DNA of 64,000 nucleotides from Octopus sinensis (taxonomy: Eukaryota): the NCBI RefSeq assembly GCF_006345805.1, contig NC_043004.1, forward strand, positions 63,674,001 through 63,738,000, read 5' to 3'. The number at the start of each line of letters is the position of its first letter. Position 1 is the stretch's first letter. The notes beneath the pieces are model-generated. The model ran no database searches, was not told where the DNA came from, and worked only from the letters and a program-made list of their open reading frames with translations. The translations under genes and the position numbers were made by a program. This document shows positions 20,310 to 63,029 of the stretch, one piece after another.

Positions 20310-20422
<113 letters not shown>

Positions 20423-20448
20423 ATGACTGCGGATCGGGCAAATGAAGA

Positions 20449-21310: not shown

Positions 21311-21403
21311 ATAAAATATTTATATTTAAAATACATGATCTTGAATAACGAGGATATATATTCTGAGAATGTCTTGTAAGCAATTCAATATCGAAACAGT
21401 GTA

Positions 21404-21468
<65 letters not shown>

Positions 21469-22585: not shown

Positions 22586-22660
<75 letters not shown>

Positions 22661-23206: not shown

Positions 23207-23345
<139 letters not shown>

Positions 23346-23479
23346 TGTATGTATGTATGTATGTATGTATGTATGAAATATAATTTTTTTCTGAATCTTC
23401 AGAATTTTGATATGCTAGGTCACTGGTTTTAAATTGATATTAAGTTAATATTCAATTTTTCACACTTATTATTTAAATT

Positions 23480-23594
<115 letters not shown>

Positions 23595-23679
23595 ATATAT
23601 ATATATAAATGCTTCTAAATTACTTGGGCTGCGTCTCTAAATGGTAGAGCATGACTGCGGATCAGGCAAATGATGATTC

Positions 23680-24540
23680 TAACTTCTGTCTACAAGCTTA
23701 GATATTAGCACGATTTTTTTCAGGAATTCAGACTCACATCTAAAGCTGCAGTTCATTACGCTACTGACATACGCGTTCAGTTCCGACATTCTCACCCACA
23801 AGAGAGAAATGGGAGGTGGAGTCCCTTAGGAAACCAACAGAAGAGTGGATTTTGTCCACAGAAATTCTAAAGCAAATAGATTCCGCTTCTTCAACATAGT
23901 GAGAGAAGAGCCCTCCTGAAGACCTCGAGAAGCTCTCTAACATTAACTCATCATCTGCAAAATCCAGAACTGTAATCTTAGTGTCATAAATATTCGGACC
24001 GGAATTCGATGTTCCACCATACAGACAAGTATCCAGTCCATGCAGATATTGATCTTTGTTGGAGCATCTCCGATGGAATGCTCCGACGGAATACAGATCC
24101 AAGTAAGAATTAGTCAGATGCTGACCGCAGTCCAAATTTCTTTAAGGCCACCATCGGCGCAACCACGCCATAGTTTTTCTGAACACATCCCTGTACATCA
24201 AGAAACTTATTGATGTCGACATAACCTTCAAGCATCTCCAAACAAATGTTTCGCATAAGTTCGATGAGTATTGAGAAAAAAGTATCTGGTGAGTAGTTCA
24301 TCTCTTTCGTGTAAATGCTGACTGCTGCCACTACTTAAATAAGAGGCATGTAGATTGTTTTGCTCTCTGTTGAGAACAATCGGGACGGACTTCTTCCGTG
24401 AACGAAAATGAACACAAGTTTTGGAAAGTAGTTACAGTCGTGATGTTCAGCACTAGATGAAGTATATGATCCCTTTTCCGGAGACTTTGCTAAAGGCCAT
24501 AAGGTACATGCGCACAGCATCACGTAAGTTTTGTCAAATG
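23680..24540 (-). mobile_element. Old RTE-type RT remnant inside triplication unit 2
   Basis: Copy of 20449-21310 (ORFs 23761-24135, 24110-24331). Confidence 0.7.
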
Positions 24541-24630
24541 AAATATTTATATTTAAAATACATGATCTTGAATAACGAGGATATATATTCTGAGAATGTC
24601 TTGTAAGTAATTCAATATCGAAACAGTGTA

Positions 24631-24689
<59 letters not shown>

Positions 24690-25806
24690 GTCTGTGGGAT
24701 GGGTTGTGTTTGTGGTGTGGTTGTTTGAGCTAGTGTTTCAGGTGTTTGTAGCAGTGGTCGTGATGCAGTATCTGTTTCGGGTGTATTTATCTTGCTGGCT
24801 TTATTTCAACTCTACTGCTTGTGTAGCTGACCTTTGTTACTATTTGTCCATAGATTTGTTTTCCTTTTTGTGTTTTTTCGTTTTTCTTTGGGATAGTTTG
24901 CATTGACATATTTAGCTTGACAGCCAGCTCGTCTGTGTCCACTAGCATTTTTACTTCCCCCTCAGAGAAGTTCACTCGCTAAAGAGATGATCTGGTAGCA
25001 CCAGCGAAGGAAACGCTTGTGTTCCTCCAAACATTGCACGGGGTTCGCCTCTGAACACCCTCATCGCTGCCATCGTTGCTGTTGCTGCTGCCGTTGTTGT
25101 AGTAATCTTTGCCATTGTTGCTGTTGTTGCTGCTGTTGATGGCCTCAAGCTTCTCGGTTTCACTAAAATCCATTTGCATTGCTTTTGTCGTTAACCGCTT
25201 CCTCGTTCTCTTCTCAGTACTGTTTGTTGTTGTACTGGCTCGTTCTTAGTATGTTCTTTGCTTAACTTCGTACTGCAACTATTAGTGATGGTGAGAATAA
25301 GGTTACTTTTGTTTTTGTCTATCTCACTATCTTTGCTGCTATTTTTCATGCTGCTACTAGCGATGGTGGTGACGGATGTGGTGATGTTGACCCCGCTGAT
25401 TTCCCGCGCTCTTTCATACTTCAGATCATTCTCATTGTTGCTGCAGCTGCCATCGCTGACAGACTTCGTCGCATAGGGTACAAGATGAGATGGCGACGGA
25501 GGAAGAGGGAAATTTTCTTCACCTGAGGGATGGTTGGTGGGAGATACGACCCCCTTCTCAATGCTGCGGTAAAGACAAATAGTTAGGCCATTTTGAATGT
25601 ATGTTTGCTGTGTTTCAAAATAGTTGAGCGTTTTATGAAGGCAAAAATATTGCCCCTTACGAGGCAAAAACAACCACAGAGCACCAGGCAAGAGATTCCT
25701 GGTCTTCCAAACAACGAGTTGAAACAAGCACTAACGACAAAAAACAATAATTATAACACACATTACGTAGCCTCTTCGTAAACATGTGCTTACAATTCCA
25801 CAGCAA

Positions 25807-25891
<85 letters not shown>

Positions 25892-26458
25892 TATAATAAT
25901 AATAATAATCGTTTAGCGTCCGCTTTCCATGGTAGCATGGGTTGGACGGTTCAACAGGGGTCTGGGAAGCCAGAAGGCTGCACCAGGCCCAGTCTGATCT
26001 GGCAATGTTTCTACGGCTGGATGCCCTTCCGATCGCCAACCACTCCATGAGTGTAGTGAGTGCTTTTTACGTGCCACCGGCACAGGTGCCAGACGAGTCC
26101 ATTTTACCATCTAGTTTCCTGGACTAATTGGTTTCTGATTTTAGTTTAGCAAGTAAATACCATTTACCCGCTAGGTTAAATTGTCCTCAACAGGTAAACC
26201 TTGGGTTAAATATATAAATACGAAGCGATCAAAACTATGCGCCTCTTGTTTATAGATCCTAATTTTTTCAAAACCTACTGCGCAGACGTAGCCCTTCGCC
26301 GGCAGTAAAAAAAAAGCCAACTTTTCAATCCCACGATTGGATTCCTTATGTGTTTAAATATACCGTGCATTTTACGATTAATACATAGTCTTTGGACTAA
26401 ATGTTTACAGGTTAGGCCACTGAAAGTGAAAATTTTAATTAATTTCCATTTCCTTTTC

Positions 26459-26567
<109 letters not shown>

Positions 26568-26726
26568 TGTATGTATGTATGTATGTATGTATGTATGTAT
26601 GTATGAAATATAATTTTTTCTGAATCTTCAGAATTTTGATATGCTAGGTCACTGGTTTTAAATTGATATTAAGTTAATATTCAATTTTTCACACTTATTA
26701 TTTAAATTTATATATATATAATATAT

Positions 26727-26855
<129 letters not shown>

Positions 26856-26939
26856 ATATATATATATATAAATGCTTCTAAATTACTTGGGCTGCGTCTT
26901 TAAATGGTAGAGCATGACTGCGGATCAGGCAAATGATGA

Positions 26940-27800
26940 TTCTAACTTCTGTCTACAAGCTTAGATATTAGCACGATTTTTTTCAGGAATTCAGACTCAC
27001 ATCTAAAGCTGCAGTTCATTACGCTACTGACATACGCGTTCAGTTCCGACATTCTCACCCACAAGAGAGAAATGGGAGGTGGAGTCCCTTAGGAAACCAA
27101 CAGAAGAGTGGATTTTGTCCACAGAAATTCTAAAGCAAATAGATTCCGCTTCTTCAACATAGTGAGAGAAGAGCCCTCCTGAAGACCTCGAGAAGCTCTC
27201 TAACATTAACTCATCATCTGCAAAATCCAGAACTGTAATCTTAGTGTCATAAATATTCGGACCGGAATTCGATGTTCCACCATACAGACAAGTATCCAGT
27301 CCATGCAGATATTGATCTTAGTTGGAGCATCTCCGATGGAATGCTCCGACGGAATACAGATCCAAGTAAGAATTAGTCAGATGCTGACCGCAGTCCAAAT
27401 TTCTTTAAGGCCACCATCGGCGCAACCACGCCATAGTTTTTCTGAACACATCCCTGTACATCAAGTAACTTATTGATGTCGACATAACCTTCAAGCATCT
27501 CCAAACAAATGTTTCGCATAAGTTCGATGAGTATTGAGAAAAAAGTATCTGGTGAGTAGTTCATCTCTTTCGTGTAAATGCTGACTGCTGCCACTACTTA
27601 AATAAGAGGCATGTAGATTGTTTTGCTCTCTGTTGAGAACAATCGGGACGAACTTCTTCCGTGAACGAAAATGAACACAAGTTTTGGAAAGTTGTTACAG
27701 TCGTGATGTTCAGCACTAGATGAAGTATATGATCCCTTTTCCGGAGACTTTGGTAAAGGCCATAAGGTCCATGCGCACAGCATCACGTAAGTATTGTCAA
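26940..27800 (-). mobile_element. Old RTE-type RT remnant inside triplication unit 3
   Basis: Copy of 20449-21310 (ORFs 27024-27206, 27373-27594). Confidence 0.7.
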
Positions 27801-27895
27801 ATGAAATATTTATATTTAAAATACATGATCTTGAATAACGAGGATATATATTCTGAGAATGTCTTGTAAGTAATTCAATATCGAAACAGTGTAAG

Positions 27896-28121
27896 AAAGG
27901 CGGCGAGCTGGCAGACACGTTAGCACACCGGGCGAAATGCGTAGACGTATTTCGTCTGCCGTTACGCTCTGAGTTCAAATTCCGCCGAGGTCGACTTTGC
28001 CTTTCATCCTTTCGGGGTCGATAAATTAAGTACCAGTTTCGCACTGGGGTCGATGTAATCGACTTAATTCCTTTGTCTGTCCTTGTTTGTCCCCTCTATG
28101 TTTAGCCCCTTGTGGGTAGTA

Positions 28122-28127
<6 letters not shown>
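27896..28127 (+). mobile_element. SINE present only in triplication unit 3
   Basis: Units 1 and 2 read gaaacagtgtaag-(AT)n; unit 3 has about 230 bp ggcggcgagctggcag...gtgggtagtaaacaa between those sequences. Confidence 0.88.
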
Positions 28128-28161
<34 letters not shown>

Positions 28162-29277
28162 GTCTGTGGATGGGTTGTGTTTGTGGTGTGGTTGTTTGAG
28201 CTAGTGTTTCAGGTGTTTGTAGCAGTGGTCGTGATGCAGTATCTGTTTCGGGTGTATTTATCTTGCTGGCTTTATTTCAACTCTACTGCTTGTGTAGCTG
28301 ACCTTTGTTACTATTTGTCCATAGATTTGTTTTCCTTTTTGTGTTTTTCGTTTTTCTTTGGGATAGTTTGCATTGACATATTTAGCTTGACAGCCAGCTC
28401 GTCTCTGTCCACTAGCATTTTTACTTCCCCCTCAGAGAAGTTCACTCGCTAAAGAGATGATCTGGTAGCACCAGCGAAGGAAACGCTTGTGTCCCTCCAA
28501 GCATTGCATGGGGTTCGCCTCTGAACACCCTCATCGCTGCCATCGTTGCTGTTGCTGCTGCCGTTGTTGTAGTAATCTTTGCCATTGTTGCTGCTGTTGC
28601 TGCTGTTGATGGCCTCAAGCTTCTCGGTTTCACTAAAATCCATTTGCATTGCTTTTGTCGTTAACCGCTTCCTCGTTCTCTTCTCAGTACTGTTTTTGGT
28701 TGTACTGGCTCGTTCTTAGTATGTTCTCTGCTTAACTTCGTACTGCAACTATTAGTGATGGTGAGAATATGGTTACTTTTGTTTTTGTCTATCTCACTAT
28801 CTTTGCTGCTATTTTTCATGCTGCTACTAGCGATGGTGGTGGCGGATGTGGTGATGTTGACCCTGCTGATTTCCCGCGCTCTTTCATACTTCAGATCATT
28901 CTCATTGTTGCTGCAGCTGCCATCGCTGTCAGACTTCGTCGCATAGGGTACAAGGTGAGATGGCGACGGAGGAAGAGGGAAATTTTCTTCACCTGAGGGA
29001 TGGTTGGTGGGAGATACGGCCCCCTTCTCAATGCTGCGGTAATGACAGATAGTTAGGCCATTTTGAATGTATGTTTGCTATGTTTCAAAATAGTTGAGCG
29101 TTTTATGAAGGCAAAAATATTGCCCCTTACGAGGCAAAAACAACCACAGAGCACCAGGCAAGAGATTCCTGGTGTTCCAAACAACGAGTTGAAACAAACA
29201 CTAACCACAAAAAACAATAATTATAACACACATTTACGTAGCCTCTTCGTAAACATGTGCTTACAATTCCACAGCAA

Positions 29278-29338
<61 letters not shown>

Positions 29339-29362
29339 TATAATTATAATAATAGTAATAAT

Positions 29363-31734
29363 CGTTTAGCGTCCGCTTTCCATGCTAGCATGGGTTGGAC
29401 GGTTCAACTTGTTTCTGGGAAGCCAGAAGGCTGCACCAGGCCCAGTCTGATCTGGCAATGTTTCTACGGCTGGATGCCCTTCCGAACGCCAACCACTCCA
29501 TGAGTGTAGTGAGTGCTTTTTACGTGCCACCGGCACAGGTGCCAGACGAGTCTGGCAAACGGCCACAATCAGATGGTGCTTTTTATGTGCCACCGGCACA
29601 AGGGCCAGGCGAGGCTGGCAACCGCCACCAACGGATGGTGCTTTTTACGTGCCACCGGCACGAGGCCAGTCGGGACGGCGCTGGCAACGGCCACGTTCGG
29701 ATGGTTCTCTTACATGCCACCGGCACTGGAATCTCAGCTGCAATTTCCATTGATCGATTCTGATTCTGATTCTGACTTGCCTCAACAGGTCTTCACAAGT
29801 AGAGTTTTGTGTCCCAAGAAGAGAAGATATGCATAAGTGGACTGGCTACATCTCGTGTAGAAGGCCACGGGTTATGGTCTCACTTGTCTTCCCGGGTCTT
29901 CTCACGCACAGCATACTTCCAGAGGTCTCGGTCTCTAGTCATTTCCTCAGTGAGACCTAAAGTTCGAAGGTCGTGCTTCACCACCTCGTCCCAGGTTTTC
30001 CTGGGTCTGCCTCTTCCACAGGTTCCCTCAACTGCTAGGGTGTGACACTTTTTCACACAACTATCTTCATCCATTCTCGCCACATGACCATACCAGCGCA
30101 AACGTCTCTCTTGCAAACCAAATCTGATGCTTCTTAGGCCCAGCTTTTCTCTCAAGGTACTTACACTCTGTCGAGTATGAACACTGACATTACACATCCA
30201 TCGGAGCATACTGGCTTCATTTCTTGCAAGCTTACGCATATCCTCAGCAGTCACGGCCCATGTTTCACTGCCATGTAGCATGGTTGTTCGTACACACGCG
30301 TCCAACAGTCTGCCTTTTACTCTGAGCGAGAGGCCTTTTGTCACCAGCAGAGATAAGAGCTCTCTGAACTTTGCCCAAGCTATCCTTATTCTAGCAGTTA
30401 TACTTTCAGCACACCCGCCCTCGCTACTGACTTGGTCACCTAGGTAACGGAAGCTATCAACTATTTCTAGTTTTTCTCCCTGGAAAGTAGCAGAAGTTGG
30501 TCTCAGATTATTTTCAGTGTTTATTGCTCCTGAGCATCTGCCACATACAAAAACTATCTTCCTAGTTAGCCTTCCTTTGACATTGCTGCACCTCTATGCT
30601 GATGAGCAAGGTCATCAGCATAGAGGAGCTCCCAGGGGCATCCTGTCTTGAATTCCTCCGTTATTGCCTGGAGGACTATGATAAATAGGAGGGGCCTGAG
30701 GACTGAGCCTTGGTGAACCCCTACCTCTACCCGAAATTCTTCACTGTACTCGTTGCCAACCCTCAACTTACTAGCAGCGTCCCTGTACATGGCTCGCACA
30801 GCTCTCACTAACCATTCATCTATCCCTAGTTTCCTCATTGACGACCAGATAAGGGATCGGGGGACCCTGTCGAAGGCTTTCTCCATGTCAACAAAAGCCA
30901 GGTACAGGGGCTTATCTTTGGCTAGGTATTTCTCCTGCAGCTGCCTTACCAGGAATATAGCATCAGTGGTACTTTTCCCTGGCACGAACCCAAACTGCAT
31001 CTCATTTAAACTAACTCTCTCTCTAATTAGTTGGGATATGACCCTCTCCGTAACCTTCATTACCTGATCCAACAGCTTGATACCTCTGTAATTATTTGTA
31101 TCTAGGGCGTCACCTTTACCTTTGTAGCAGTTGACTATTATACTGCTACGCCAGTCATTGGGTATGACTCCTTTGTGTATCACCTGCTTAACTTTACGGG
31201 TGACTAGGCTATAGCCGACACTACCAGATATTTTGAGCATCTCTGCAGTGATACCTGATGGGCTTTCCCCGTCTTCATGCTTCTAATTGCCTTACCTACC
31301 AAGGAACTGTCAACTCGGATAGCTGGTCCCTCTGTTGGGTCATCATTCGGCAGACTCTCTTTATCCCATTCATTTTCTTTATTCAGCAACATTTCATAGT
31401 GGCGTCTCCAAACCTCTCTCTTTGCATCCTCATTTACCGCAAGTGAACCATCTTCCATGCGAACACACTTCTCTCCTACCACATCACATTTCTCTCTCAT
31501 ACACTGTCTTGCAACACGAAACACCTCCAGTCTTTGGTCCTCACGGCGCAGAACATTGGCAAATCTTTTCTTATCTGCTTCCCCTCTGGCTAGATAGACC
31601 TGTCTTCTAGCTTCCCTTTTGGCAGTCTGATACAATTCCCTGCTACCACCATTCTTGCAGTCCTTCCAAGCCTGTCTCTTTTCTCTTATAGCCCTGTCTA
31701 CAACATTGTTCCACCACCACGTTTCCTTGGGACG
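29363..31734 (-). mobile_element. 5'-truncated RTE-clade LINE with internal deletion; 3' UTR intact
   Basis: NYRGIKLLD, MQFGFVPGKSTTDAIF, AFVDMEKAFDRVP, GVHQGSVLRPLLF, LLYADDL, FRYLG, LHGSETW, LRWYGHV, GRGRPRKTW. Its last about 190 bp are also at 22660-22850 and 25909-26099. Confidence 0.9.
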
Positions 31735-44135: not shown

Positions 44136-47100
44136 ACGCTTTCAAATGTCTGACAGGTTCCGACTAGACCACCTGAAGGCGCCAACGTGGCCATGGAGCA
44201 ACGGCATCGGGTCGTCGAGATCGTATCTAGATAGGATACTGTGTAGGACAGTAGATAGAGATAGCATAGGATGTCCACAATTCTACATAGTTAGCTACAC
44301 GGATCACAAACTTGTGACATGTACGCTAGACTTAGGTAAGTCACTTAGGCAGGGTCCCGGATACTGGAAACTAAACGCGTCTTTCCCATCGAGACAAGTT
44401 TTCAGAGACCGGATTAGCACACTAATAAAGAGGGCTTTGACGGGAGCCATCATCAACAACAAATGGTGGTTTGCCCTCAAGAGAGCAGTAAAAGCAGAAG
44501 CGATTAGGTACAGCAAAGCACTAACCATAGATAGAAATAGAGTAGAGGGTGAGCTAGTTAAGAAGCTAGAACAGGCAATTAGAAGCGGCATCGCATCCGA
44601 CGTTTTGGCGGCGAGGTTGGCCCTCGACAAATACTCCAACGCCAAACACGAAGGGTGTGTTTTCAGAGCTAGGATACGTGCTCTAAGGAACGAAGGTGTT
44701 GGAGCCGCGAGAGAGGCCCGGGTGGCAGAGGCGCAACAGGGCAACAAAGCCACCATTCAGTCTCTGGTAGATGAACAGGGGCGCGAATTGATCGAACCAA
44801 GTAAAATGTGTGAGGCCTTTCAACAGCACTTTGCCCGCCTTTTCGGGACAAGTGGCGGGCAAGAACGTAGGGTGGACTTCAGTGCCTACCTACACAGCCT
44901 ACCACGACTCTCGACAAGAGAGGCAGGGTGCTGCGAAGGTGCCATCACGGCGGCGGAAGTGCAGGACGCGATGGCAGAATGCTCGAGGGACAAGTCACCG
45001 GGTTTGGATGGTCTACTCTACGAGCTTTACAATTGTATGCCAGACTTGTTTGGAGATGTCTTGGTAGCGGTATACTGCAACTGGCAGCAAAACGGGAGCA
45101 TTCCTGGTTTTCTGAGCCGAGGAGCCGTAACACTGCTGAAGAAAGATCTAAACAAGTGAAATGTAATAGATAACTTTAGGCCCATCACTCAGCTTAATGC
45201 AGACCTGAAAATTTTGGCCAAGGTGCTAGCCAAGAGGTTGGCGCTTGTCATCGAGAAACTGGTCGACAAGGCGCAAGCATGCGCCGTGCCGGGCCGGACC
45301 ATCCATGACAACCTCCACCTGATGCGCTACATCATAGACAGGGTAGTTAACGAACCTGGCATGGGTGGGGCGCTGATCAATTTGGATCAATCGAAAGCTT
45401 TCGATAGGATGGACCATCGATATTTGGAGGCAGTCCTCAGAGCGGCTGGCTTCGGTCCCGTCTTCCGCGGCTAGATAGCCGCTTTGTACAGAGGCATACG
45501 TTCGGTAGTTCGTGTAAATGGACATCTATCGAGACCTTTCGACATTGCACGTTCGGTCCGTCAGGGATGCCCCCTCTCGTCGCTTCTATACGTATTGACT
45601 CTCGAGCCATTATTGCGGAAGCTGGCAACTTTGAGGGGCATCCCGCGAGAACTGGGATGCGGGACGAGCGTGTCTGTATACGCGGACGACGTCACCGTCA
45701 TTGTGTCTAGCCACGAGCACATCGAGCAGGTCGGCGAGACATTGAAAAACTACGAAGGGGTGACAGAAGCGAAAATCAACCGGGAAAAGTCAGTGGGCTT
45801 GCGACTAGGCACCTGGAGAAGCAAGCCCATGCCGTCCACCAGCGCCTCTGTCGTGCGACGCTGGACCGACGGTCCGGTCGAGTTGCTCGGGGTCTGGTTC
45901 GGTCCGGACCTCCAAGTGGAGAAGAACTGGAACGAGATAATGAGTAGGGTGGTCACTCTCGCCCGGCAATGGGCCGAGAGGAAACTGTCCCTAAAAAGTC
46001 GGGCGGAGGTGGCGAACACGTACATCGCGTCCGTCATCTACTACCGCCTGACCGTCGTACCTTGTCCCGACTCTACCATCACCAAACTAGAACGCATTCT
46101 CTTTCGCTTCTTGTGGAAAGAATGCGTCCCGATGGTCAGGCGATCCATTTGCTGTCAACACTCGTTAAAAGGAGGACTGGGCATGCCGTGGTTGATGATG
46201 CGCAGACACGCGCTGAGACTGCGACATCTCAGGCTCTTCGTAGACGACGGTGAACAGGTGTGGTCGCCGTTTGTGAGGCACGCTTTCCCGCAGCTCGTCT
46301 CCATGACCGAACTGCAGTCGTGGATCAAAAAGAGGCCGAGGAAGGGCGAATGGCACCGCGAGTGTCGCGTTGCTCTCAAGCAACTATGCCGTCCCGGGTC
46401 GACCTTGAGTGACTCCATCACAACCCAAGCATTCTATAGGGGATTAGTGGAGGTGAGGTACGACGACGACCTCGGGGTGAACTTGGACGTCGACGACGAA
46501 TACCTGACCCGCCTGTTAGGGACGACGTTCGGGCCAGGGCCCATGGACAACTTCCAGAGATCCCTGGCCTGGCAGTACTATCGAGAAGCGCTACCCGTTC
46601 GGGATAAGCTCTATAGGCATGGCTCGAAAAACACGGGGCCGACCTGCCCGAGATGCGGTCAGAGCGACGAAACCGTTCTGCACGCACTCGTGCAGTGTCC
46701 AGCAATTTCCGACCTGTGGGCTTATGTCGAACAACTGTTGTCACGTGTGGGACGAGTCGGTTTATCAGCTGAGTCTATCGTCAATATTGTCACGCCTCCT
46801 TCCTTCAAACGGGAAGGAAGAGCTATTTTCATCATCCTTGTGGCTATGGCGAAGGAATGTATCTGGTGGACGCGTCTGAAAGGATTGGAGACAAACACTT
46901 TCCTCTCTGGTCAATCTCTCATCAACTTCTTCAAGTACCACTTGAAAAGGAAAGTGAGAGTAGAGAGGCAAGTTTTGTCTAACGAATGTTTTAAAAAAAG
47001 ATGGGTAAATGTAGCAAGGGTGGCACGTATGAATGACGAAGCCACCTTGAGCATAATCCTATGAACCCAGAAATTGAAAACAGAGGGTTACCCACTTGCA

Positions 47101-47520
47101 ATCAAATGTGGTAACATATAACAATATTGACCGATGTTACCGTGGTCTTTTTTGTAGGCTTTTCTTCCAACGGATATACCTTATCTGCTATCCTTTTTAC
47201 ATCGTACATCATGACACTGTGATACACGATCCCTATTGATAGTTTTTTCCTCTCCCCCTTTTTCCTCTTTTTTCTTCCTTTTTTATTTTTCTTTTCCTTT
47301 TTTTCTTTTTTTCTTTTCTTTTTCTTTGTTTTTCCTTCTTCCACTTTTACGATCCCTTTTGATAGAAAACCTACGCCACTTTTTTTGTTTCTTGTTTATT
47401 GTTTTCTTTTGTTTTTTTTCCTCCCACAAAAGAAAAGCTCTACCTTGTAATTTGTCCCATCTGTGTGCATTCCTGTGTGGCCAATAAAGAAACTTATTTA
47501 TCTATCTATCTATCTATCTA
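44136..47520 (+). mobile_element. 5'-truncated Tx1/L1-like LINE with nearly intact ORF2 (APE end, RT, C-terminal Zn finger) and 3' UTR
   Basis: One frame 44146-47064 broken only by TGA 45157-45159 and TAG 45472-45474: SYLDRI, TDHK, WKLN, KSPGLDG, LDQSKAFDR, VRQGCPLS, VYADD, KINREKS, GGLG, CPRCGQSDETVLHALVQC. T-rich 3' UTR, AATAAA, (TATC)n. Confidence 0.92.
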
Positions 47521-47531
47521 TAAATATATCT

Positions 47532-50388
47532 GTCTTGACTGACGTGATGCCGCATCGGCTCCGCAGGTGACCCCTTTTTTTTCGAACATTTATTGTTTCA
47601 ATTTCTGCACACAAAGTACCCAGCTTTCGTTTGAGTGTGTTTTCAAGGGAGAAATTGACCCCCTAGAGGCAGTTTCATACCTATTTACATATCTCTTTTC
47701 ATCGATTTCCATGCCATATTTCTAAACTAATATGGCTAAGCGAAACCATGAAGCTGACCTCCCGACTCTACCAATGCTAGAGGCGAAGGAAGCTGAAAGC
47801 AAAGTCGTTCCGCGTGAACGCACACAAGCCTTTGATGGCACGAATGCTTCTGCTACTATAACCACTACGCCATCACCACCACAACCAATACGAATACTGA
47901 AAACAATTTTGCCGCAGCTTTGAAGTTAGAGAAAACAGTTCTATGCTTTTCCAAAGAAGAACCGCCCGCCTGTAAAGCGATGTTTAAAAGAGACGACCTC
48001 TGCATACAACTACACACACCACAAAACATCACAGAAAGAATCGAAACAAAAAATTCAGTTAGTTACCGAACACTCAGTCTAAAAACAAAAGCTATACGAA
48101 AAGGCCGCTCAAGAAAATGTTGAAAAATGTTTAAGGCCTATATAGGCCATTAATGATTACATTACAAGGGGTGACAGATTTGCCACGACTGAAGTTCGAT
48201 TCGACACTGAAGAAAGAGCCGAGGACATCTGCACAAAGTCCTTCCAATTTGAAAACCGGATTGGCCAAGAAATTGAAATTCTTGCTGAAATTAATCCGAT
48301 GATGTTCGAAAAAATTCTACATAGAATCCAATGAGAGAGGACATAGAAGGCAGAAAGCTACGTTGCTATGTTTGTAGTAGCAAAGCACACTTACAAATTA
48401 ACCGCCCACTAGCACAGAATCAATAACAACAGCAACAACAACGACTACAAGATCACGAAAAACAAAAATAACCACAAGGAAACCAAAAACCGTGCAAATA
48501 AACCAGCACTGTTACCCACACCGCCATATGCAGAACTAATTAAACAACTCTACAAACAAATAGAGGAACATCAGCAACCAACAAGTCAACCCAACCAAAC
48601 AACATCACCACCAGCGCCACCAAAAATAGAAACAACACCAACATCACCACCAATAACAACAACAACTTCAAAGGAGGAAGAGAAAACCAAAACGACTCAT
48701 ACCCCGCCCCCAAAACCCACACGCCACACCCCAACTGTTACCAACCAGCACCAACACCAATGACAAATTCAACACACTCAGAAGTAGACCCCAATACACT
48801 TCCCCTCCCACCTTCGGATCCTCCGATATGTCGTCAGATGAAGAAAACGACACAGGGGATTGGCAAGTGTCCACAACCAATCTGGCAAAATGTTGTATAT
48901 CATGCGAGAGGGAATTAGTTCGCAACAATAGAGGTGCGAGTCGCAAGTGAAGATAAGGCCAGGCAACACTCAACGTCACCTGTGAGATAGAACGAAGTGG
49001 TACTACTACCCATCTACTTAGGAAGGCGAACTTCCAACGTGAAGGTAGGATAAATCCCAGCGCGGTAGACGTCGCCTTGCTGGTGGCCGCTAACGTTTTG
49101 GGCTTGGAAGATAAAGTGACAATCCTCCATGCCTCGAAAATTCATCAACAAAATTGGTAGGGTCAAGGCCTGGAAATATTATCACAGGCCGCAGCGCAAG
49201 ATTACCTCAAATTGATTGCAGACATCATACGAGTAGGGGACGAAACGATCCTGAGATTAATGGTGGAGAGAAGAAAACCAAGCGATCTGAATGCCCTCCA
49301 CCAGTGAAAACAAAAGCTCCCCCACCCGCTGCGGAATCAGCCGCACATCCTACTGCGCTAGTGGTCTAAGAGACAAGCAGAGAGGAACAGCAAAACATGA
49401 AAAGAAAAGAAGCACAAACCTTGGACAGTGAATGAAGTGAAGTATCATGGAAGAAAAAGAAAGATCCCATCATTCTTCAACGGACGCTTTTCCCCAAACC
49501 ATGTGCACAGACACTGACTCCAAAACGGCTCCTACAGTCACCAGTCTCCAAACCTCCACCTGTTATACTAATCTCCCCCTCCCCACAGTTATAAACACTC
49601 GCAGAGCCCCCAAGATTCTCACACCCGTCCCACATAAAAATTATATATATCTGCGTATGATGCAAACAATTAAATTTGTTTAAATGAAATTGCCACAATT
49701 TAACAAAACGCACAAACATTTACTTGTCCTGATATCAGTGGTGTTCCCACCCACATAGATTTTATCTATATAGATAGGACCAACCACAAATGTTTAAAAA
49801 ATATATTTCCTGAGGAGGTTGGCTCTCCAAGAAAAAGTATTTTGACAGCACCCTATAATAAACTCATTGTGTCCCCACCAACCACGAATGATGAGGAGGA
49901 TTAACCATCCTCCAGGACTGTTATTTATCTTTTTGGTTTCCCTTAATGTAGGATATATAAATGTGCGCGGCCTGGGTTCGATAAGAAAGTAGGGTTTCCT
50001 CTCTGACGATCTCAGGTCGCTTAGACGGGATGTTGTTGTTATTACTGAAGCCAGACTGTGAGGGCTGCAGACTTTCTCACTCCTGTTAAACGACTACGAG
50101 AAAATTATTTCTCTATGTGAAACGGCAGGGGTGAGTGGCGTCATGGTTCTTCTCAGGAAGACTTTGAAGTTACAGATAAGAATAATCTTTGTTGACCCGG
50201 AGAGCTAGGCTGGTCGTCGTTGATGAGACGCACAGCAGTGGTAAGTCAGGTTGCTGGTTGTCTACCGTCTTTGTAGAGTGGGACAGTTCGACGTTTTTCA
50301 ATCTCTTGAAAATTCTCTAGGCACATAAAACACAGTAGTGGTGTTAGGAGACTTTATACAATCTGCAATGCACGCGTAGATTATGTTC
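47532..50388 (+). mobile_element. 3'-truncated, decayed Tx1/L1-like LINE: 5' UTR, ORF1, start of APE endonuclease
   Basis: ORF1 remnants from 47732; at about 49945 LNVGYINVRGL...ITEARL...GVMVLL...VDP..RLVVVD...VLGDF, the APE N-terminal motifs. Many stops. Confidence 0.78.
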
Positions 50389-50661: not shown

Positions 50662-50703
50662 ATTCAGGGGGGATGAAGTCAATGCGGATTCTTCGAGTTT
50701 CCC
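50662..50703 (+). CDS. Candidate micro-exon B, copy 1 (42 nt, FRGDEVNADSSSF)
   Basis: tttccatttaaatttcag| ... |gtaagtt; phase 2-2. Confidence 0.55.
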
Positions 50704-53321: not shown

Positions 53322-56229
53322 GTCTTGACTGGCGTGATGTCGCATCGGCTCCGCAGGTAACCCCTTTTTTTTTCGAACATTTATTGTTTCAATTTTTGCA
53401 CACAAAGTACCCACCTTTCGTTTGAGTGTGTTTTCAAGGGAGAAATTGACCCCTAGAGGCAGTTTCATACCTATTTACATATCTCTTTTCATGGATTTCC
53501 TTGCCATAGTTCTGAACAAATATGGCTAAGCGAACCATGAAGCTGACATCCCAACTCTACCAATGCTAGAGGCGAAGGAAGCTGAAAGCAAAGTCGTTCC
53601 GCGTGAACGCACACAGGCCTTTAATGGCACGAATGCTTCTGCTACTATAACCACCACGCCATCACCAACACAACCAATACGAATACTGAAAACAATTTTG
53701 CCGCAGCTTTGAAGTTAAAGAAAACAGTCATGTGCTTTTCCAAAGAAGAACTGCCCACCTGTAAAGCGATGTCTAAAAGAGACGACCTCTGCATACAACT
53801 ACACACACCACAAAACATCACAGAAAGAATCGAAACAAAAAATTCAGTTAGTTACAGAACATTAAGTCTAAAAAACAAAGCTATACGAAAAGGCCGCTCA
53901 AGAAAATGTTGAAAAATGTTTAAGGCCTATATAGGCCATTAATGATTACATTACAAGGGGTGACAGATTTGCCACGACTGAAGTTCGATTCGATAGTGAA
54001 GAAAGAGCTAAAGATGTCTGCACTTTGAGTCCTTCCATTTTGAAAACCGGATTGGCCAAGAAATTGAAATTCTTGCTGAAATTAATCCGATGATGTTCGA
54101 AAAAATTCTACATAGAATCCAATGAGAGAGGACATCGAATGCAGAAAGCTACGTTGCTATGTTTGTGGTAGCAAAGCGCACTTACAAATTAACCGCCCAC
54201 TAGCACAGAATCAATAACAACAGCAACAACAACGACTACAAGATCACGAAAAACAAAAATAACCACAAGGTTTAAAGAAATAGAAAAATAAAGAAATAGA
54301 AAAACAAAAATAACCACAAGGAAATCAAAAACCGTGCAAATAAACCAGCACTGTTACCCACACCGCCATATGCAGAACTAATTAAACAACTCTACAAACA
54401 AATAGAGGAACATCAGCAACCAACAAGTCAACCCAACCAAACAACATCACCACCAGCGCCACCAAAAACAGAAACAACACCAACATCACCACCAATAACA
54501 ACAACAACTTCAAAGGAGGAAGAGAAAACCAAAAAGACTCATACCCCACCCCCAAAACCCACACGCCACACCCCAACTGTTACCAACCAGCACCAACACC
54601 AATGACAAATTCAACACACTCAGAAGTAGACCCCAATACACTTCCCCTCCCACCTTCGGATCCTCCGATATATCGTCAGATGAAGAAAACGACACAGGGG
54701 ATTGGCAAGTGTCCACAACCAATCTGGCAAAATGTTGTATATCATGCAAGAGGGAATAAGTTCGCAACAATAGAGGTGCGAGTCGCAAGTGAAGATAAGG
54801 CCAGGCAACACTCAACGTCACCCGTGAGATCGAACGAAGTGGTACTACTACCCATCTACTTAGGAAGGCGAACTTCCAACGTGAAGGTAGGATAAATCCC
54901 AGCGCGGTCGACGTCGCCTTGCTGGTGGCCGCTAACGTTTTGGGCTTGGAAGATAAAGTGACAATCCTCCATGCCTCGAAAATTCATCAACAAAATTGGT
55001 AGGGTCAAGGCCCGGAAATATTATCACAGGCCGCAGCGCAAGATTACCTCAAATTGATTGCAGACATCATACGAGTAGGGGACGAAACGATCCTGAGATT
55101 GATGGTGGAGAGAAGAAAACCAGGCGATCTAAATGCCCTCCACCAGTGAAAACAAAAGCTCCCCCACCCGCTGCGGAATCAGCCGCACATCCTACTGCGC
55201 TAGTGGTCTAAGAGACAAGCAGGGAGGAACAGCAAAACATGAAAAGAAAAGAAGCACAAACCTTGGACAGTGAATGAAGTGAAGTATCAGGGAAGAAAAA
55301 GAAAGATCCCATCATTCTTCAACGGACGCATTTCCCCAAACCATGTGCACAGACACTGACTCCCAAACGGCTCCTACAGTCACCAGTCTCCAAACCTCCA
55401 CCTGTTATACTAATCTCCCCCTCCCCACAGTTATAAACACACGCAGAACCCTCAAGATTCTCACACCCGTCCCACATAAAAATTATATATATCTGCGTAT
55501 GATGCAAACAATTAAATTTTTTTAAATAAAATTTCCACAATTTAACAAAACGCACAAACATTTACTTGTCCTGATATCAGTGGTGTTCCCACCCACATAG
55601 ATTTTATCTATATAGATAGGACCAACCACAAATGTTTAAAAAATATATTTCCTGAGGAGGTTGGCTCTCCAAGAAAAAGTATTTTGACAGCACCCTATAA
55701 TAAACTCATTGTGTCCCCACCAACCACGAATGATGAGGAGGATTAACCATCCTCCAGGACTGTTATTTATCTTTTTGGTTTCCTTAATGTAGGATATATA
55801 AATGTGCGCGGCCTGGGTTCGATAAGAAAGTAGGGTTTCCTCTCTGACGATCTCAGGTCGCTTAGACGGGATGTTGTTGTTATTACTGAAGCCAGACTGT
55901 GAGGGCTGCAGACTTTCTCACTCCTGTTAAACGACTACGAGAAAATTATTTCTCTATGTGAAACGGCAGGGGTGAGTGGCGTCATGGTTCTTCTCAGGAA
56001 GACTTTGAAGTTACAGATAAGAATAATCTTTGTTGACCCGGAGAGCTAGGCTGGTCGTCGTTGATGAGACGCACAGCAGTGGTAAGTCAGGTTGCTGGTT
56101 GTCTACCGTCTTTGTAGAGTGGGACAGTTCGACGTTTTTCAATGTCTTGAAAATTCTCTAGGCACATAAAACACAGTAGTGGTGTTAGGAGACTTTATAC
56201 AATCTGCAATGCACGCGTAGATTATGTTC
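53322..56229 (+). mobile_element. Duplicate of the 47532-50388 LINE (5' UTR, ORF1, APE start)
   Basis: Same 5' end gtcttgactgxcgtgatg and same ORF remnants. Confidence 0.78.
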
Positions 56230-56254
56230 ATAATTAATCTTGATTAATCCACAG

Positions 56255-56383
56255 CTAAGAACGTAAGCATGGGCAAAATGATGCTGAACTCTCTGCAAGG
56301 CATACTATTCTGCAAGCTCTCCGTTCAAATCTGTTCATATTGCTCTCAATGTCTGAAACAATGCCATCCGTTTTGGGAAAGAT
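56255..56383 (+). CDS. Candidate exon A, copy 2
   Basis: As copy 1; ...MSETMPSVLGK. Confidence 0.4.
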
Positions 56384-56502
56384 GTAAGTCGATTACATCG
56401 ACACCAGTGTTCAATCATTTCTTAATGTTGTAATTTATTCCATAAGCCAAATACAGAAATCACAGCAGTAACATATGTTTCTGCTTTCCATTTAAATTTC
56501 AG

Positions 56503-56544
56503 ATTCAGGGGGGATGAAGTCAATGCGGATTCTTCGAGTTTCCC
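56503..56544 (+). CDS. Candidate micro-exon B, copy 2
   Basis: Identical to copy 1, splice sites intact. Confidence 0.55.
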
Positions 56545-57402
56545 GTAAGTTCTTCGCTACCGACATATTTCTATCCTCACTCTGAATCCAATACAGCCAA
56601 TTAAATACACAGGATTTTAGGGACCACAGTACTCGTAACAAAACAACATTTATAGTCAATTTTGACAACATAAGCTATCAAAATAAGGAGTGTCCTGATT
56701 TGATATAATAGGCAGACACTAGTGTTTTGAAGCAGCAAATAATTGCTAGAATACAGTAAAGACGAATGATCAGTGAAATATTACCTTTCAAGTAATGGCT
56801 GATGGAGGAAATAACTGATTCATTGACAAAGATATAGCACATCCCATTCAAGATTGTATTTTAATAGATATTTTCCTTGATTCACGTGCCCATTTCTAAA
56901 TTTCTACTCTTCAGTTAATAATTAATCTTGATTCTTTCACTGGTATTTTAATTTTAGTGCGTAACATAAACCACAGAATTTCGATGATCTCTTTCTAAAA
57001 TTATTTCATACTTACCCTTGATCATTTCTGTATCCTGTCGATATATCAATCTTATTTTGATAATCAAACAGATAGGAATGTTGGGTCGCCAACGAGGTCT
57101 TTGCCGATACCCGTAAAACTCGAAAGTTTTCAGCAAACCCTCGTACATATTTCGCGCTGTGTTCCCCTAGTAATTTCTGTTCTTTAAGAGTCATCAGTTG
57201 CAACTTGTTAATTCATATTATCATCTCAGTGCTCAAAACTAAATTGTTAGCTTAAATTTTACACTTGTGCATCATTATCTCTTTGATGTTATGTCAGCTT
57301 CATTCTTGGAAAATCTTTTTGGTTTAATAACTCACTCGTAATGTTACTGTAGTCTAAGGAAATCTAAAATGAGATCTTTAATTTATTTTTTTTACATTTC
57401 AG

Positions 57403-57435
57403 ACCGCTGATTAGCTTCGAGATGGAGAAAAAAGA
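57403..57435 (+). CDS. Candidate micro-exon C, copy 2 (divergent, PLISFEMEKK)
   Basis: acatttcag| ... |gtaagta; only phase 2 open; 11/33 differences from copy 1. Confidence 0.55.
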
Positions 57436-57595
57436 GTAAGTATTTGTTTATTGAAATACTTAAACGCCCCTTCGTTATGGTATCCGTTATATAAATACAT
57501 TTATAAAAATATTGTTCCCCAATTCCTTTCTCTGTATACGATCATCACATACCAAGAGCATTATGTCATATCATTATGTGATATCTATTTTAATA

Positions 57596-58884
57596 GGGCT
57601 TGGAAGATAAAGTGACAATCCTCCATGCCTCGAAAATTCATCAACAAAATTGGTAGGGTCAAGGCCTGGAAATATTATCACAGGCCGCAGCGCAAAATTA
57701 CCTCAAATTGATTGCAGACATCATGCGAGTAGGGGACGAAACGATCCTGAGATTAATGGTGGAGAGAAGAAAACCAAGCGATCTAAATGCCCTCCACCAG
57801 TGAAAATAAAATCTCCCCCACCCGCTGCGGAATCAGCCGCACATCCTACTGCGCTAGTGGTCTAAGAGACAAGCAGGGAGGAACAGCAAAACATGAAAAG
57901 AAAAGAAGCACAAACCTTGGACAGTGAATGAAGTGATGTATCAGGGAAGAAAAAGAAAGATCCCATCATTCTTCAACGGACGCATTTCCCCAAACCATGT
58001 GCACAGACACTGACTCCAAAACGGCTCCTACAGTCACCAGTCTCCAAACCTCCACCTGTTATACTAATCTCCCCCTCCCCACAGTTATAAACACACGCAG
58101 AGCCCTCAAGATTCTCACACCCGTCCCACATAAAAATTATATATATCTGCGTATGATGCAAACAATTAAATTTTTTTAAATAAAATTTCCACAATTTAAC
58201 AAAACGCACAAACATTTACTTGTCCTGATATCAGTGGTGTTCCCACCCACATAGATTTTATCTATATAGATAGGACCAACCACAAATGTTTAAAAAATAT
58301 ATTTCCTGAGGAGGTTGGCTCTCCAAGAAAAAGTATTTTGACAGCACCCTATAATAAACTCATTGTGTCCCCACCAACCACGAATGATGAGGAGGATTAA
58401 CCATCCTCCAGGACTGTTATTTATCTTTTTGGTTTCCCTTAATGTAGGATATATAAATGTGCGCGGCCTGGGTTCGATAAGAAAGTAGGATTTCCTCTCT
58501 GACGATCTCAGGTCGCTTAGACGGGATGTTGTTGTTATTACTGAAGCCAGACTGTGAGGGCTGCAGACTTTCTCACTCCTGTTAAACGACTACGAGAAAA
58601 TTATTTCTCTATGTGAAACGGCAGGGGTGAGTGGCGTCATGGTTCTTCTCAGGAAGACTTTGAAGTTACAGATAAGAATAATCTTTGTTGACCCGGTGAG
58701 CTAGGCTGGTCGTCGTTGATGAGACGCACAGCAGTGGTAAGTCAGGTTGCTGGTTGTCTACCGTCTTTGTAGAGTGGGACAGTTCGACGTTTTTCAATGT
58801 CTTGAAAATTCTCTAGGCACATAAAACACAGTAGTGGTGTTAGGAGACTTTATACAATCTGCAATGCACGCGTAGATTATGTTC
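57596..58884 (+). mobile_element. LINE fragment (ORF1 end, APE start) within array unit 2
   Basis: Copy of 54942-56229. Confidence 0.75.
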
Positions 58885-58909
58885 ATAATTAATCTTGATT
58901 AATCCACAG

Positions 58910-59038
58910 CTAAGAACGTAAGCATGGGCAAAATGATGCTGAACTCTCTGCAAGGCATACTATTCTGCAAGCTCTCCGTTCAAATCTGTTCATATTGCTC
59001 TCAATGTCTGAAACAAGGCCATCCGTTTTGGGAAAGAT
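58910..59038 (+). CDS. Candidate exon A, copy 3
   Basis: As copy 2 but the second ATG is AGG (MSETRPSVLGK). Confidence 0.4.
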
Positions 59039-59157
59039 GTAAGTCGATTACATCGACACCAGTGTTCAATCATTTCTTAATGTTGTAATTTATTCCATAA
59101 GCCAAATACAGAAATCACAGCAGTAACATATGTTTCTGCTTTCCATTTAAATTTCAG

Positions 59158-59199
59158 ATTCAGGGGGGATGAAGTCAATGCGGATTCTTCGAGTTTCCC
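59158..59199 (+). CDS. Candidate micro-exon B, copy 3
   Basis: Identical to copy 1. Confidence 0.55.
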
Positions 59200-60058
59200 G
59201 TAAGTTCTTCGCTACCGACATATTTCTATCCTCACTCTGAATCCAATACAGCCAATTAAATACACAGGATTTTAGGGACCACAGTACTCGTAACAAAACA
59301 ACATTTATAGTCAATTTTGACAACATAAGCTATCAAAATAAGGAGTGTCCTGATTTGATATAATAGGCAGACACTAGTGTTTTGAAGCAGCAAGTAATTG
59401 CTAGAATACAGTAAAGACGAATGATCAGTGAAATATTACCTTTCAAGTAATGGCTGATGGAGGAAATAACTGATTCATTGACAAAGATATAGCACATCCC
59501 ATTCAAGATTGTATTTTAATAGATATTTTCCTTGATTCACGTGCCCATTTCTAAATTTCTACTCTTCAGTTAATAATTAATCTTGATTCTTTCACTGGTA
59601 TTTTAATTTTAGTGCGTAACATAAACCACAGAATTTCGATGATCTCTTTCTAAAATTATTTCATACTTACCCTTGATCATTTCTGTATCCTGTCGATATA
59701 TCAATCTTATTTTGATAATCAAACAGATAGGAATGTTGGGTCGCCAACGAGGTCTTTGCCGATACCCGTAAAACTCGAAAGTTTTCAGCAAACCCTCGTA
59801 CATATTTCGCGCTGTGTTCCCCTAGTAATTTCTGTTCTTTAAGAGTCATCAGTTGCAACTTGTTAATTCATATTATCATCTCAGTGCTCAAAACTAAATT
59901 GTTAGCTTAAATTTTACACTTGTGCATCATTATCTCTTTGATGTTATGTCAGCTTCATTCTTGGAAAATCTTTTTGGTTTAATAACTCACTCGTAATGTT
60001 ACTGTAGTCTAAGGAAATCTAAAATGAGATCTTTAATTTTTTTTTTTTTACATTTCAG

Positions 60059-60091
60059 ACCGCTGATTAGCTTCGAGATGGAGAAAAAAGA
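60059..60091 (+). CDS. Candidate micro-exon C, copy 3 (PLISFEMEKK)
   Basis: Identical to copy 2. Confidence 0.55.
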
Positions 60092-60251
60092 GTAAGTATT
60101 TGTTTATTGAAATACTTAAACGCCCCTTCGTTATGGTATCCGTTATATAAATACATTTATAAAAATATTGTTCCCCAATTCCTTTCTCTGTATACGATCA
60201 TCACATACCAAGAGCATTATGTCATATCATTATGTGATATCTATTTTAATA

Positions 60252-61540
60252 GGGCTTGGAAGATAAAGTGACAATCCTCCATGCCTCGAAAATTCATCAA
60301 CAAAATTGGTAGGGTCAAGGCCTGGAAATATTATCACAGGCCGCAGCGCAAAATTACCTCAAATTGATTGCAGACATCATGCGAGTAGGGGACGAAACGA
60401 TCCTGAGATTAATGGTGGAGAGAAGAAAACCAAGCGATCTAAATGCCCTCCACCAGTGAAAATAAAATCTCCCCCACCCGCTGCGGAATCAGCCGCACAT
60501 CCTACTGCGCTAGTGGTCTAAGAGACAAGCAGGGAGGAACAGCAAAACATGAAAAGAAAAGAAGCACAAACCTTGGACAGTGAATGAAGTGATGTATCAG
60601 GGAAGAAAAAGAAAGATCCCATCATTCTTCAACGGACGCATTTCCCCAAACCATGTGCACAGACACTGACTCCAAAACGGCTCCTACAGTCACCAGTCTC
60701 CAAACCTCCACCTGTTATACTAATCTCCCCCTCCCCACAGTTATAAACACACGCAGAGCCCTCAAGATTCTCACACCCGTCCCACATAAAAATTATATAT
60801 ATCTGCGTATGATGCAAACAATTAAATTTTTTTAAATAAAATTTCCACAATTTAACAAAACGCACAAACATTTACTTGTCCTGATATCAGTGGTGTTCCC
60901 ACCCACATAGATTTTATCTATATAGATAGGACCAACCACAAATGTTTAAAAAATATATTTCCTGAGGAGGTTGGCTCTCCAAGAAAAAGTATTTTGACAG
61001 CACCCTATAATAAACTCATTGTGTCCCCACCAACCACGAATGATGAGGAGGATTAACCATCCTCCAGGACTGTTATTTATCTTTTTGGTTTCCCTTAATG
61101 TAGGATATATAAATGTGCGCGGCCTGGGTTCGATAAGAAAGTAGGATTTCCTCTCTGACGATCTCAGGTCGCTTAGACGGGATGTTGTTGTTATTACTGA
61201 AGCCAGACTGTGAGGGCTGCAGACTTTCTCACTCCTGTTAAACGACTACGAGAAAATTATTTCTCTATGTGAAACGGCAGGGGTGAGTGGCGTCATGGTT
61301 CTTCTCAGGAAGACTTTGAAGTTACAGATAAGAATAATCTTTGTTGACCCGGTGAGCTAGGCTGGTCGTCGTTGATGAGACGCACAGCAGTGGTAAGTCA
61401 GGTTGCTGGTTGTCTACCGTCTTTGTAGAGTGGGACAGTTCGACGTTTTTCAATGTCTTGAAAATTCTCTAGGCACATAAAACACAGTAGTGGTGTTAGG
61501 AGACTTTATACAATCTGCAATGCACGCGTAGATTATGTTC
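60252..61540 (+). mobile_element. LINE fragment (ORF1 end, APE start) within array unit 3
   Basis: Copy of 57596-58884. Confidence 0.75.
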
Positions 61541-61565
61541 ATAATTAATCTTGATTAATCCACAG

Positions 61566-61694
61566 CTAAGAACGTAAGCATGGGCAAAATGATGCTGAAC
61601 TCTCTGCAAGGCATACTATTCTGCAAGCTCTCCGTTCAAATCTGTTCATATTGCTCTCAATGTCTGAAACAAGGCCATCCGTTTTGGGAAAGAT
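61566..61694 (+). CDS. Candidate exon A, copy 4
   Basis: Identical to copy 3. Confidence 0.4.
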
Positions 61695-61813
61695 GTAAGT
61701 CGATTACATCGACACCAGTGTTCAATCATTTCTTAATGTTGTAATTTATTCCATAAGCCAAATACAGAAATCACAGCAGTAACATATGTTTCTGCTTTCC
61801 ATTTAAATTTCAG

Positions 61814-61855
61814 ATTCAGGGGGGATGAAGTCAATGCGGATTCTTCGAGTTTCCC
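61814..61855 (+). CDS. Candidate micro-exon B, copy 4
   Basis: Identical to copy 1. Confidence 0.55.
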
Positions 61856-62549
61856 GTAAGTTCTTCGCTACCGACATATTTCTATCCTCACTCTGAATCC
61901 AATACAGCCAATTAAATACACAGGATTTTAGGGACCACAGTACTCGTAACAAAACAACATTTATAGTCAATTTTGACAACATAAGCTATCAAAATAAGGA
62001 GTGTCCTGATTTGATATAATAGGCAGACACTAGTGTTTTGAAGCAGCAAGTAATTGCTAGAATACAGTAAAGACGAATGACCAGTGAAATATTACCTTTC
62101 AAATAATGGCTGATGGAGGAAATAACTGATTCATTGACAAAGATATAGCACATTCCATTCAAGATTGTATTTTAATAGATATTTTCCTTGATTCACGTGC
62201 CCATTTCTAAATTTCTACTCTTCAGTTAATAATTAATCTTGATTCTTTCACTGGTATTTTAATTTTAGTGCGTAACATAAACCACAGAATGTCGATGATC
62301 TCCTTCTAAAATTATTTCATACTTACCCTTGATCATTTCTGTATCCTGTCGATATATCAATCTTATTTTGGGACGAGAATATGAATTAAACACAGATTCG
62401 AACTAGAATATTTTATTCATATTATTTTCAAATATGGGAAGAATGTCAGCATATGTCGGAGAAGTGTTTACATTGATTATATTGTCACTAGTGATTCAAC
62501 TTTTCTTATTTTATCACACATCAAGTATCAAAGGCGAATTAATCCACAG

Positions 62550-62678
62550 CTAAAAACGTAAGCATGGGCAAAATGATGCTGAACTCTCTGCACGGCATAC
62601 AACTCTGCAAGCTCTCCCTTCGAATCTTTTCATGTTGCTCTCAATGTCTGAAACAATGCCATCCGTGTTGGGAAAGAT
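62550..62678 (+). CDS. Candidate exon A, divergent copy (A')
   Basis: 129 nt, gat|gtaagtc; 10 differences from copy 1; no LINE upstream. Confidence 0.4.
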
Positions 62679-62800
62679 GTAAGTCGATTACATCGACACC
62701 AGTGTTCAATCATTTCTTAATGTTGTTGTATTTTATTCCATAAGCCAAATACAGAAATCACAGTAGTAACATATGTTTCTGTTTTCCATTTAAATTTCAG

Positions 62801-62842
62801 ATTAAGATTGGATGAAGGCAGTGTGGATTCTTCGACAGTCTT
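62801..62842 (+). CDS. Candidate micro-exon B, divergent copy (B', LRLDEGSVDSSTV)
   Basis: aaatttcag| ... |gtaagtt; 42 nt; only phase 2 open; 12/42 differences from B. Confidence 0.55.
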
Positions 62843-63029
62843 GTAAGTTCTTCGCTACCGATATATTATTATCCTCATTCTGGTTTATACATCTTATTTT
62901 CTCACATATTTCATTTGACAATCCTTATTCCTTATAATTACTATGTATGTAATACCTTGCACAACACTCTCTCTCTCTCTGGTTGCTCACTGACTATCCA
63001 TTAGGAAAATAGGACATATTCTTTATTTG

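Follow-up and report, generated by a model that had tools for sequence, protein, structure and literature searches.

Micro-exon B' (62801..62842, + strand) lies in the 5′ part of what its sequence identifies as a gene for a neprilysin-family (M13) membrane peptidase of Octopus sinensis (gene copy g5), and we found that amino-acid-changing sites in B-type exons diverge faster than both the flanking introns and the synonymous sites. The C micro-exons and the transmembrane exons of the same genes are fast too, but the ectodomain exons are not. Positive selection on a predicted cytoplasmic tail and its membrane anchor fits this pattern best, while intron homogenization, relaxed constraint, and RNA editing fit it worse. 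In full, our reading is that B' is one of a row of tail micro-exons of an M13 peptidase, driven apart by positive selection that is sustained by a cytosolic or intramembrane antagonist, and to this reading as a whole we assign a probability of roughly 0.6; we are far more certain of the gene's identity and of the rate pattern than of the driver. The window is the entire 64,000-nt stretch analyzed (C8:63,674,001-63,738,000 of a 2.7-Gb genome), and 998 kb of surrounding DNA were also examined; positions prefixed with C8 are those of the contig, and all others are those of the window.

With an ectodomain exon as the query, the search returned the RefSeq protein membrane metallo-endopeptidase-like 1 of O. 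sinensis, and Pfam analysis of the gene product (P0003) recovered M13_N (E = 1e-30) and M13 (E = 4e-46), with domain scores of 107 bits for Peptidase_M13_N (cut-off 32) and 158 bits for Peptidase_M13 (cut-off 24.5). HExxH, GENIAD, and VNAFY are described as M13 family motifs (PMC2259306), and P0003 carries the zinc motif as HEILH at residue 614, the GENIAD-type third-ligand motif as ENIAD at 673 (with E instead of the preceding G), and the VNAFY-type substrate motif as the variant VNAVY at 572; variation in this last motif is recorded for M13 peptidases in the same source. All exons of the g5 gene model are placed at C8:63.7157-63.8316 Mb. In the gene models, X1 (777 aa) has one B exon more than the second RefSeq isoform, X2 (763 aa). 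Both isoforms start in exon C1 (P0001 and P0003 open at its Met) and continue through C exons, B', a further B-type exon (B''; C8:63,739,388), the transmembrane exon (C8:63,743,928-63,744,034), and the full peptidase domain. B'' and the transmembrane exon lie past the window end and are separated by a simple repeat, and ~20 exons of the peptidase domain follow 3′ of the transmembrane exon, outside the window. The C-like exon envisaged after B' in a preliminary description of this DNA is absent: B'' follows instead, and the stretch from B' to the transmembrane exon contains no exon of the C type. A 23-kb satellite with a period of ~66 nt (C8:63,806,980-63,830,245) fills the gene's last intron.

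A single hydrophobic segment with basic residues ahead of it occupies residues 81-105, and no N-terminal hydrophobic stretch is apparent by inspection. Because a type II layout, with a short N-terminus in the cytosol, is described for M13 enzymes (PMC3870290), we infer that the micro-exons, up to ten of which build the tail in tandem and which code for ~80 of the 777 residues, encode a cytoplasmic tail; both its topology and its function are predicted from likeness to the family. B' itself behaves as a symmetric exon (42 nt, phase 2-2) with TTTCAG/GTAAGT borders and a 100% match to residues 53-66 of P0003, i.e., tail residues of X1, and it is present in both isoforms, so that the micro-exon and the frame originally chosen for it stand. 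Four copies of micro-exon B (50662..50703, 56503..56544, 59158..59199, and 61814..61855, all +) are identical in sequence, one of them being included in isoform X1. The 33-nt C exons, also of phase 2-2, comprise C1 (41731..41763), which contains the annotated start ATG, C2 (51564..51596), C3 (57403..57435), and C4 (60059..60091), again all on the + strand, and an ATG stands at codon 7 in 12 of 13 C exons.

A recent tandem duplication (54942..62370, +), with a period of ~2.65 kb and 99.5% identity over 4,775 nt, has multiplied the B and C exons. Its unit consists of retroelement-like debris, a segment termed A, B, and C, and the four A-B blocks of the array show 0 to 2 differences per 342 nt. 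A genome-wide search found more copies of the B unit, some less than 0.5 Mb away and others on two small contigs. By inspection, the tail introns hold a remnant of a LINE-type reverse transcriptase and retroelement-like ORF debris (44200-47060 and 47500-50360), and part of the debris at 47500-50360 is repeated in every 2.65-kb unit; a second, distinct tandem duplication (19652-29552; period, ~3.2 kb) lies upstream of the gene. The segment A before B' (62550..62678, +) had been taken for the preceding exon, a view that did not hold up. It appears in none of the four RefSeq models (P0001, P0002, P0003, and P0005), its joining to B in frame as a whole meets a first-codon stop in eight of nine units and a frameshift in two of nine, and the GTAAGT at which it ends, the supposed donor site, is placed inside the core of a dispersed repeat with genome-wide repeat matches over that part. 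Judged from these features, A is probably intronic. In eight of nine units its 3′ end retains a short frame that opens with ATG, and this end may serve as an alternative start exon.

The neighboring gene copies g1 to g5 have a 5′ module in common, the copy in the window being g5. Blocks of at least 85% identity in other copies cover 69-96% of the g5 5′ region, and such blocks in g1-g3 cover less than 1% of its 3′ region. The ectodomains are of two types, alpha in g4 and g5 and beta in g1-g3, with ~36% protein identity between the types. Since the 5′ region is common to all five copies and the 3′ region is not, the tail-plus-anchor module appears to have been shared recently between distant ectodomains. 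B-type exons are also used in the RefSeq models of g1 and g4. Stops or frameshifts interrupt the ectodomains of g2, g3, and g4, and g1 has a 1-nt deletion in the HExxH exon, g5 being the only copy without a visible break; the breaks may be real or assembly errors, and some B versions may therefore reside in pseudogenes or carry assembly indels. Truncation of g1-g3 after the transmembrane exon, considered at one point, proved wrong, as the second (beta) ectodomain type follows, and a possible short terminal exon 3′ of the transmembrane exon in g1-g4 was rejected for want of splice support.

Several structures suggest that haplotypes or extra copies have recombined and vary in copy number, namely contig C9074 (L096-L099), in which a g1-type 39-nt B exon is joined to a g3-type transmembrane exon, and contig C8943 (L093-L095), which is g1-like with a single copy of a triplicated B unit. 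In addition, B2 of g4 is a mosaic exon that resembles B1 of g4 joined to B1 of g3. The 5′ module meets the alpha ectodomain at C8:63,744,644 in g5 and at ~63,576,600-63,578,500 in g4; an inverted-repeat element is located at this junction, and ~3.3 kb kept there in g4 are missing from g5. Assembly gaps are present at C8:63,635,444-63,635,543 and 63,351,135-63,351,234. Because the alpha ectodomain of g4 ends at the former gap and half of a beta ectodomain follows, g4 may be a mis-join.

The contrast between exon and intron was already apparent in the preliminary description, and its counts for B' versus B are largely exact: 12 of 42 exon sites are changed (altering 8 of 14 residues), the intron stretch 5′ of B' that was described as the A-B intron (62679..62800, +; 119/122 nt) has 3 substitutions along with a single 3-nt indel, and 4 of the first 40 nt downstream are changed, past which the B' and B contexts are non-homologous. 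Its figure of at most 2 synonymous changes requires revision: a single codon change is synonymous outright, and on the most favorable paths as many as 3 of the 12 differences could be. Compared with 17 changes in 299 flank sites, the excess in the exon is significant (Fisher test, p = 2.9e-5). Over the 900 nt upstream of B', its unit diverges from seven other units by 3.6-4.9%, and the worst 42-nt window there holds 6 to 8 differences against 10 to 20 in the exon, in all seven comparisons.

We identified 14 B exons across the five copies, 13 of them 42 nt and one 39 nt long, which amount to nine versions once identical copies (three in g1 and four in g5) are counted a single time. Nine of 13 C copies were kept; the g4 transmembrane exon, identical to that of g3, was left out, as were one g4 unit without a B exon and contigs C8943 and C9074. 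In 35 of 36 pairs the exons were more divergent than their flanks (ratio, 2.8 to 15), the exception being g3 B versus g4 B2. Specifically, 31 of 42 exon columns vary, compared with 41 of 259 in the upstream flank and 13 of 40 in the downstream one, with the variation sharply bounded at the acceptor, and tree length is 1.72 for the exon versus 0.25 for the flanks, the flank tree being star-like with low support. No paralog shows a frame-breaking change in B: phase 2 is open in 14 of 14 copies and the sole indel is 3 nt long, while stops occur in the other two frames in eight and three of the nine versions. The claim that B' and the C exons share the pattern also proved right (exons 30% versus flanks 9% divergence; omega 4.5, p = 0.026), and the transmembrane exons differ at 10 to 24 positions in ~104 nt in nine of 10 pairs (0 in g3-g4). 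As controls, 9 of about 20 alpha and 13 beta ectodomain exon segments were used, which gave 0-3.0% in exons versus 0.5-4.5% in flanks for beta (six of six pairs) and 0.6% versus 1.8% for the alpha pair.

Among the B exons, mean pN is 0.40 and mean pS is 0.10, and changes at variable columns number 13, 16, and 8 at codon positions 1, 2, and 3, respectively. A codon model gave omega of ~9 (13 codons, omega poorly bounded; 2dL = 15.6 versus omega = 1, p ~8e-5), and the same p was obtained with only the five versions of g1 and g5. Parsimony set toward synonymous paths yielded 5 synonymous and 46 nonsynonymous changes for B (p = 0.011) and 16 and 111 for B, C, and the transmembrane exon combined (p = 0.0015), although recombination among copies can inflate such tree-based counts. 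Neither C alone nor the transmembrane exon alone was significant by parsimony (p = 0.17 each), and the codon model gave omega of 2.0 (p = 0.088) for the transmembrane exon alone. The beta ectodomain has roughly equal pN and pS, which is consistent with relaxation or pseudogenes. All dN/dS values were computed among paralogous copies of one genome. A search for orthologs in other species in the 90% protein collection returned only P0001, P0005, and one unrelated-looking M13 protein; the closest other named sequence is a neprilysin of O. bimaculoides, 29% identical, in a library of 50% protein clusters that hides close relatives.

With regard to expression, the 21 sequencing runs listed include two presumed-RNA runs, X1 and X2, from one study, that contain parts of the paralogous transmembrane region. 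A 2,192-nt contig of run X2 carries the g5-type 3-nt deletion and substitutions; its first 109 letters align to the transmembrane exon only and the remainder fails to match the intron. Coding sequence from the transmembrane exon to the end of the gene should total 2,095 nt. The contig speaks for splicing of a g5-type transcript 3′ of the tail. No RNA run among the 21 is recorded as containing B', and at 88% likeness runs X1, X2, and X3 list no RNA contig over B' or B'' and no B'-B'' joint, which is not evidence of silence; the RefSeq models and the conserved frame suggest that B' is spliced into mRNA.

By domains and motifs, the octopus gene is a member of the M13 family. It resembles neprilysin, MMEL1, and ECE-1, as these are described (PMC2259306, PMC3870290, PMC2567069), in its type II layout (here predicted), short N-terminal tail, single transmembrane helix, and M13_N and M13 domains, and HExxH and ENIAD are both present; lineage-specific expansions are reported for the family in the same sources. 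It differs from these in that one tail-plus-anchor module is common to two distant ectodomains. In the account of ECE-1 (PMC2567069), the cytoplasmic N-terminus varies via four alternative promoters of one gene, whereas the octopus uses tandem micro-exons with dN/dS of ~9. For an O. bimaculoides neprilysin (P0014 and P0154-P0156), four isoforms are annotated whose only differences lie in the first 3 to 17 residues, in the manner of ECE-1. A role in venom was considered and set aside, as nothing ties the g5 gene to the neprilysin described from the salivary and digestive glands of another octopus (PMC12607849).

In its working the gene recalls the schistosome micro-exon genes (MEGs), which are described (PMC4350168) as sharing tiny symmetric exons (here 33 and 42 nt, phase 2-2), recent duplication, high dN/dS among paralogs, a transposon-rich context, and a potential for alternative splicing. 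It lacks two MEG-defining features. MEGs in that account consist mostly of micro-exons, which here encode only the tail, and their products have a signal peptide and, in these parasites, are secreted or exposed at the surface, whereas the octopus protein has a polar N-terminus before a signal-anchor, no signal peptide, and a variable part predicted to be cytosolic on an enzyme of a free-living animal. Tetherin/BST-2, as described in PMC9599465, is a membrane protein whose gene has expanded and in which viral antagonists drive positive selection on the transmembrane domain and the residues next to it; it has no homology to the octopus protein and is a restriction factor without micro-exon arrays.

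Rapidly evolving parts of membrane proteins usually face outward. In this locus, acceleration is limited to the predicted cytoplasmic tail and the anchor, with ectodomain exons no faster than introns, and because of this confinement a partner or antagonist inside octopus cells is pointed to. We propose that tandem and segmental duplication copies the symmetric micro-exons along with their introns and that exon number, exon skipping, and module swapping would give each gene copy a different tail. The tail would, in turn, set the sorting, lifetime or stability, and binding partners of the enzyme, which is likely because ECE-1 isoforms differ only in this part and localize differently (PMC2567069). 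A sustained excess confined to tail and anchor would most likely reflect conflict with a cytosolic or intramembrane binder, by analogy to tetherin. Viewed this way, the design of schistosome micro-exons extends to the intracellular segment of an ordinary enzyme family, and tails of 30 to 90 residues make a small, swappable, and testable module. A more tentative suggestion, possible but in our view doubtful, is that octopods have a MEG-like variability system facing inward, with swappable micro-exon tails and anchors under arms-race selection, in which the peptidases either would be what an intracellular pathogen, parasite, or selfish element targets or would belong to a cytosolic recognition system. 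We know of no antagonist for the octopus M13 peptidase of this locus, and we found no description of such micro-exon-built neprilysin tails in the literature searched (mainly open-access main texts).

Selection on the same exons could also operate with no antagonist, if it were driven by duplicated peptidases diverging in their sorting signals or by a role in reproduction, which we judge unlikely. The behavior of the ECE-1 isoforms agrees with this alternative, as does tail charge, which differs between an acidic g5 tail (19 D/E and 10 K/R in 80 aa) and a neutral g4 tail with two Tyr; moreover, Drosophila Nep4 is reported to be required in the sperm acrosome (PMC12658024). However, change in 31 of 42 columns and on most branches is better explained by repeated turnover than by a handful of single gains, the dileucine motif is absent, and CK2-like sites number at most one per tail.

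Non-selective explanations, even taken together, appear improbable. According to one of them, the exons are old or neutral and only look fast since the flanking introns have been homogenized by gene conversion or are held by splicing constraint. Recombination does occur in the cluster (the C9074 joint), and the star-like flank tree would agree with it, but exon synonymous sites lie near the flank rate (pS 0.10 versus ~0.05; at most 5 changes versus ~2 expected) while pN is 0.40, the 3.6-4.9% baseline holds across 900 nt away from splice signals, and ectodomain exons of the same duplicated blocks are not faster than their flanks; dN/dS above 1 largely refutes this explanation, which we consider very improbable. 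Mutation targeted to the exons, by cDNA-templated conversion with edited or error-prone copies or by local hypermutation, is more remote still. A-to-I editing is extensive in octopus, the edge of variation is sharp at the acceptor, and the synonymous rate is possibly up to twice the flank rate, but the substitution spectrum of B is like that of the flanks (A>G in 2 of 42 exon variants; transitions in 18 of 42 versus 27 of 59), the introns are retained, ectodomain exons are unaffected, and mutation alone would not spare synonymous sites. That B' is unused in mRNA or that the differences are assembly errors is scarcely credible, since, despite the lack of a listed RNA contig over B' in the presumed-RNA runs and the indel-like breaks and assembly gap in neighboring copies, errors would not be confined to exons, keep to the frame, and be nonsynonymous across nine versions, the 39-nt B version is found again in two separate contigs, and B-type exons occur in four RefSeq models of three genes.

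A third M13 gene in the region (P0023; C8:63,016,700-63,099,630) has CEIFR in place of HExxH and is likely a non-peptidase, as judged from this motif. No micro-exon array was found upstream of it with crude filters in C8:62.84-63.17 Mb, an interval that contains a 558-nt tandem repeat resembling mobile-element DNA. More M13 fragments are located at C8 63,105-63,112 kb, and other M13 loci in the genome are located at C26:12.50-12.80 Mb, C12:47.44 Mb, and C8:61.52 Mb.
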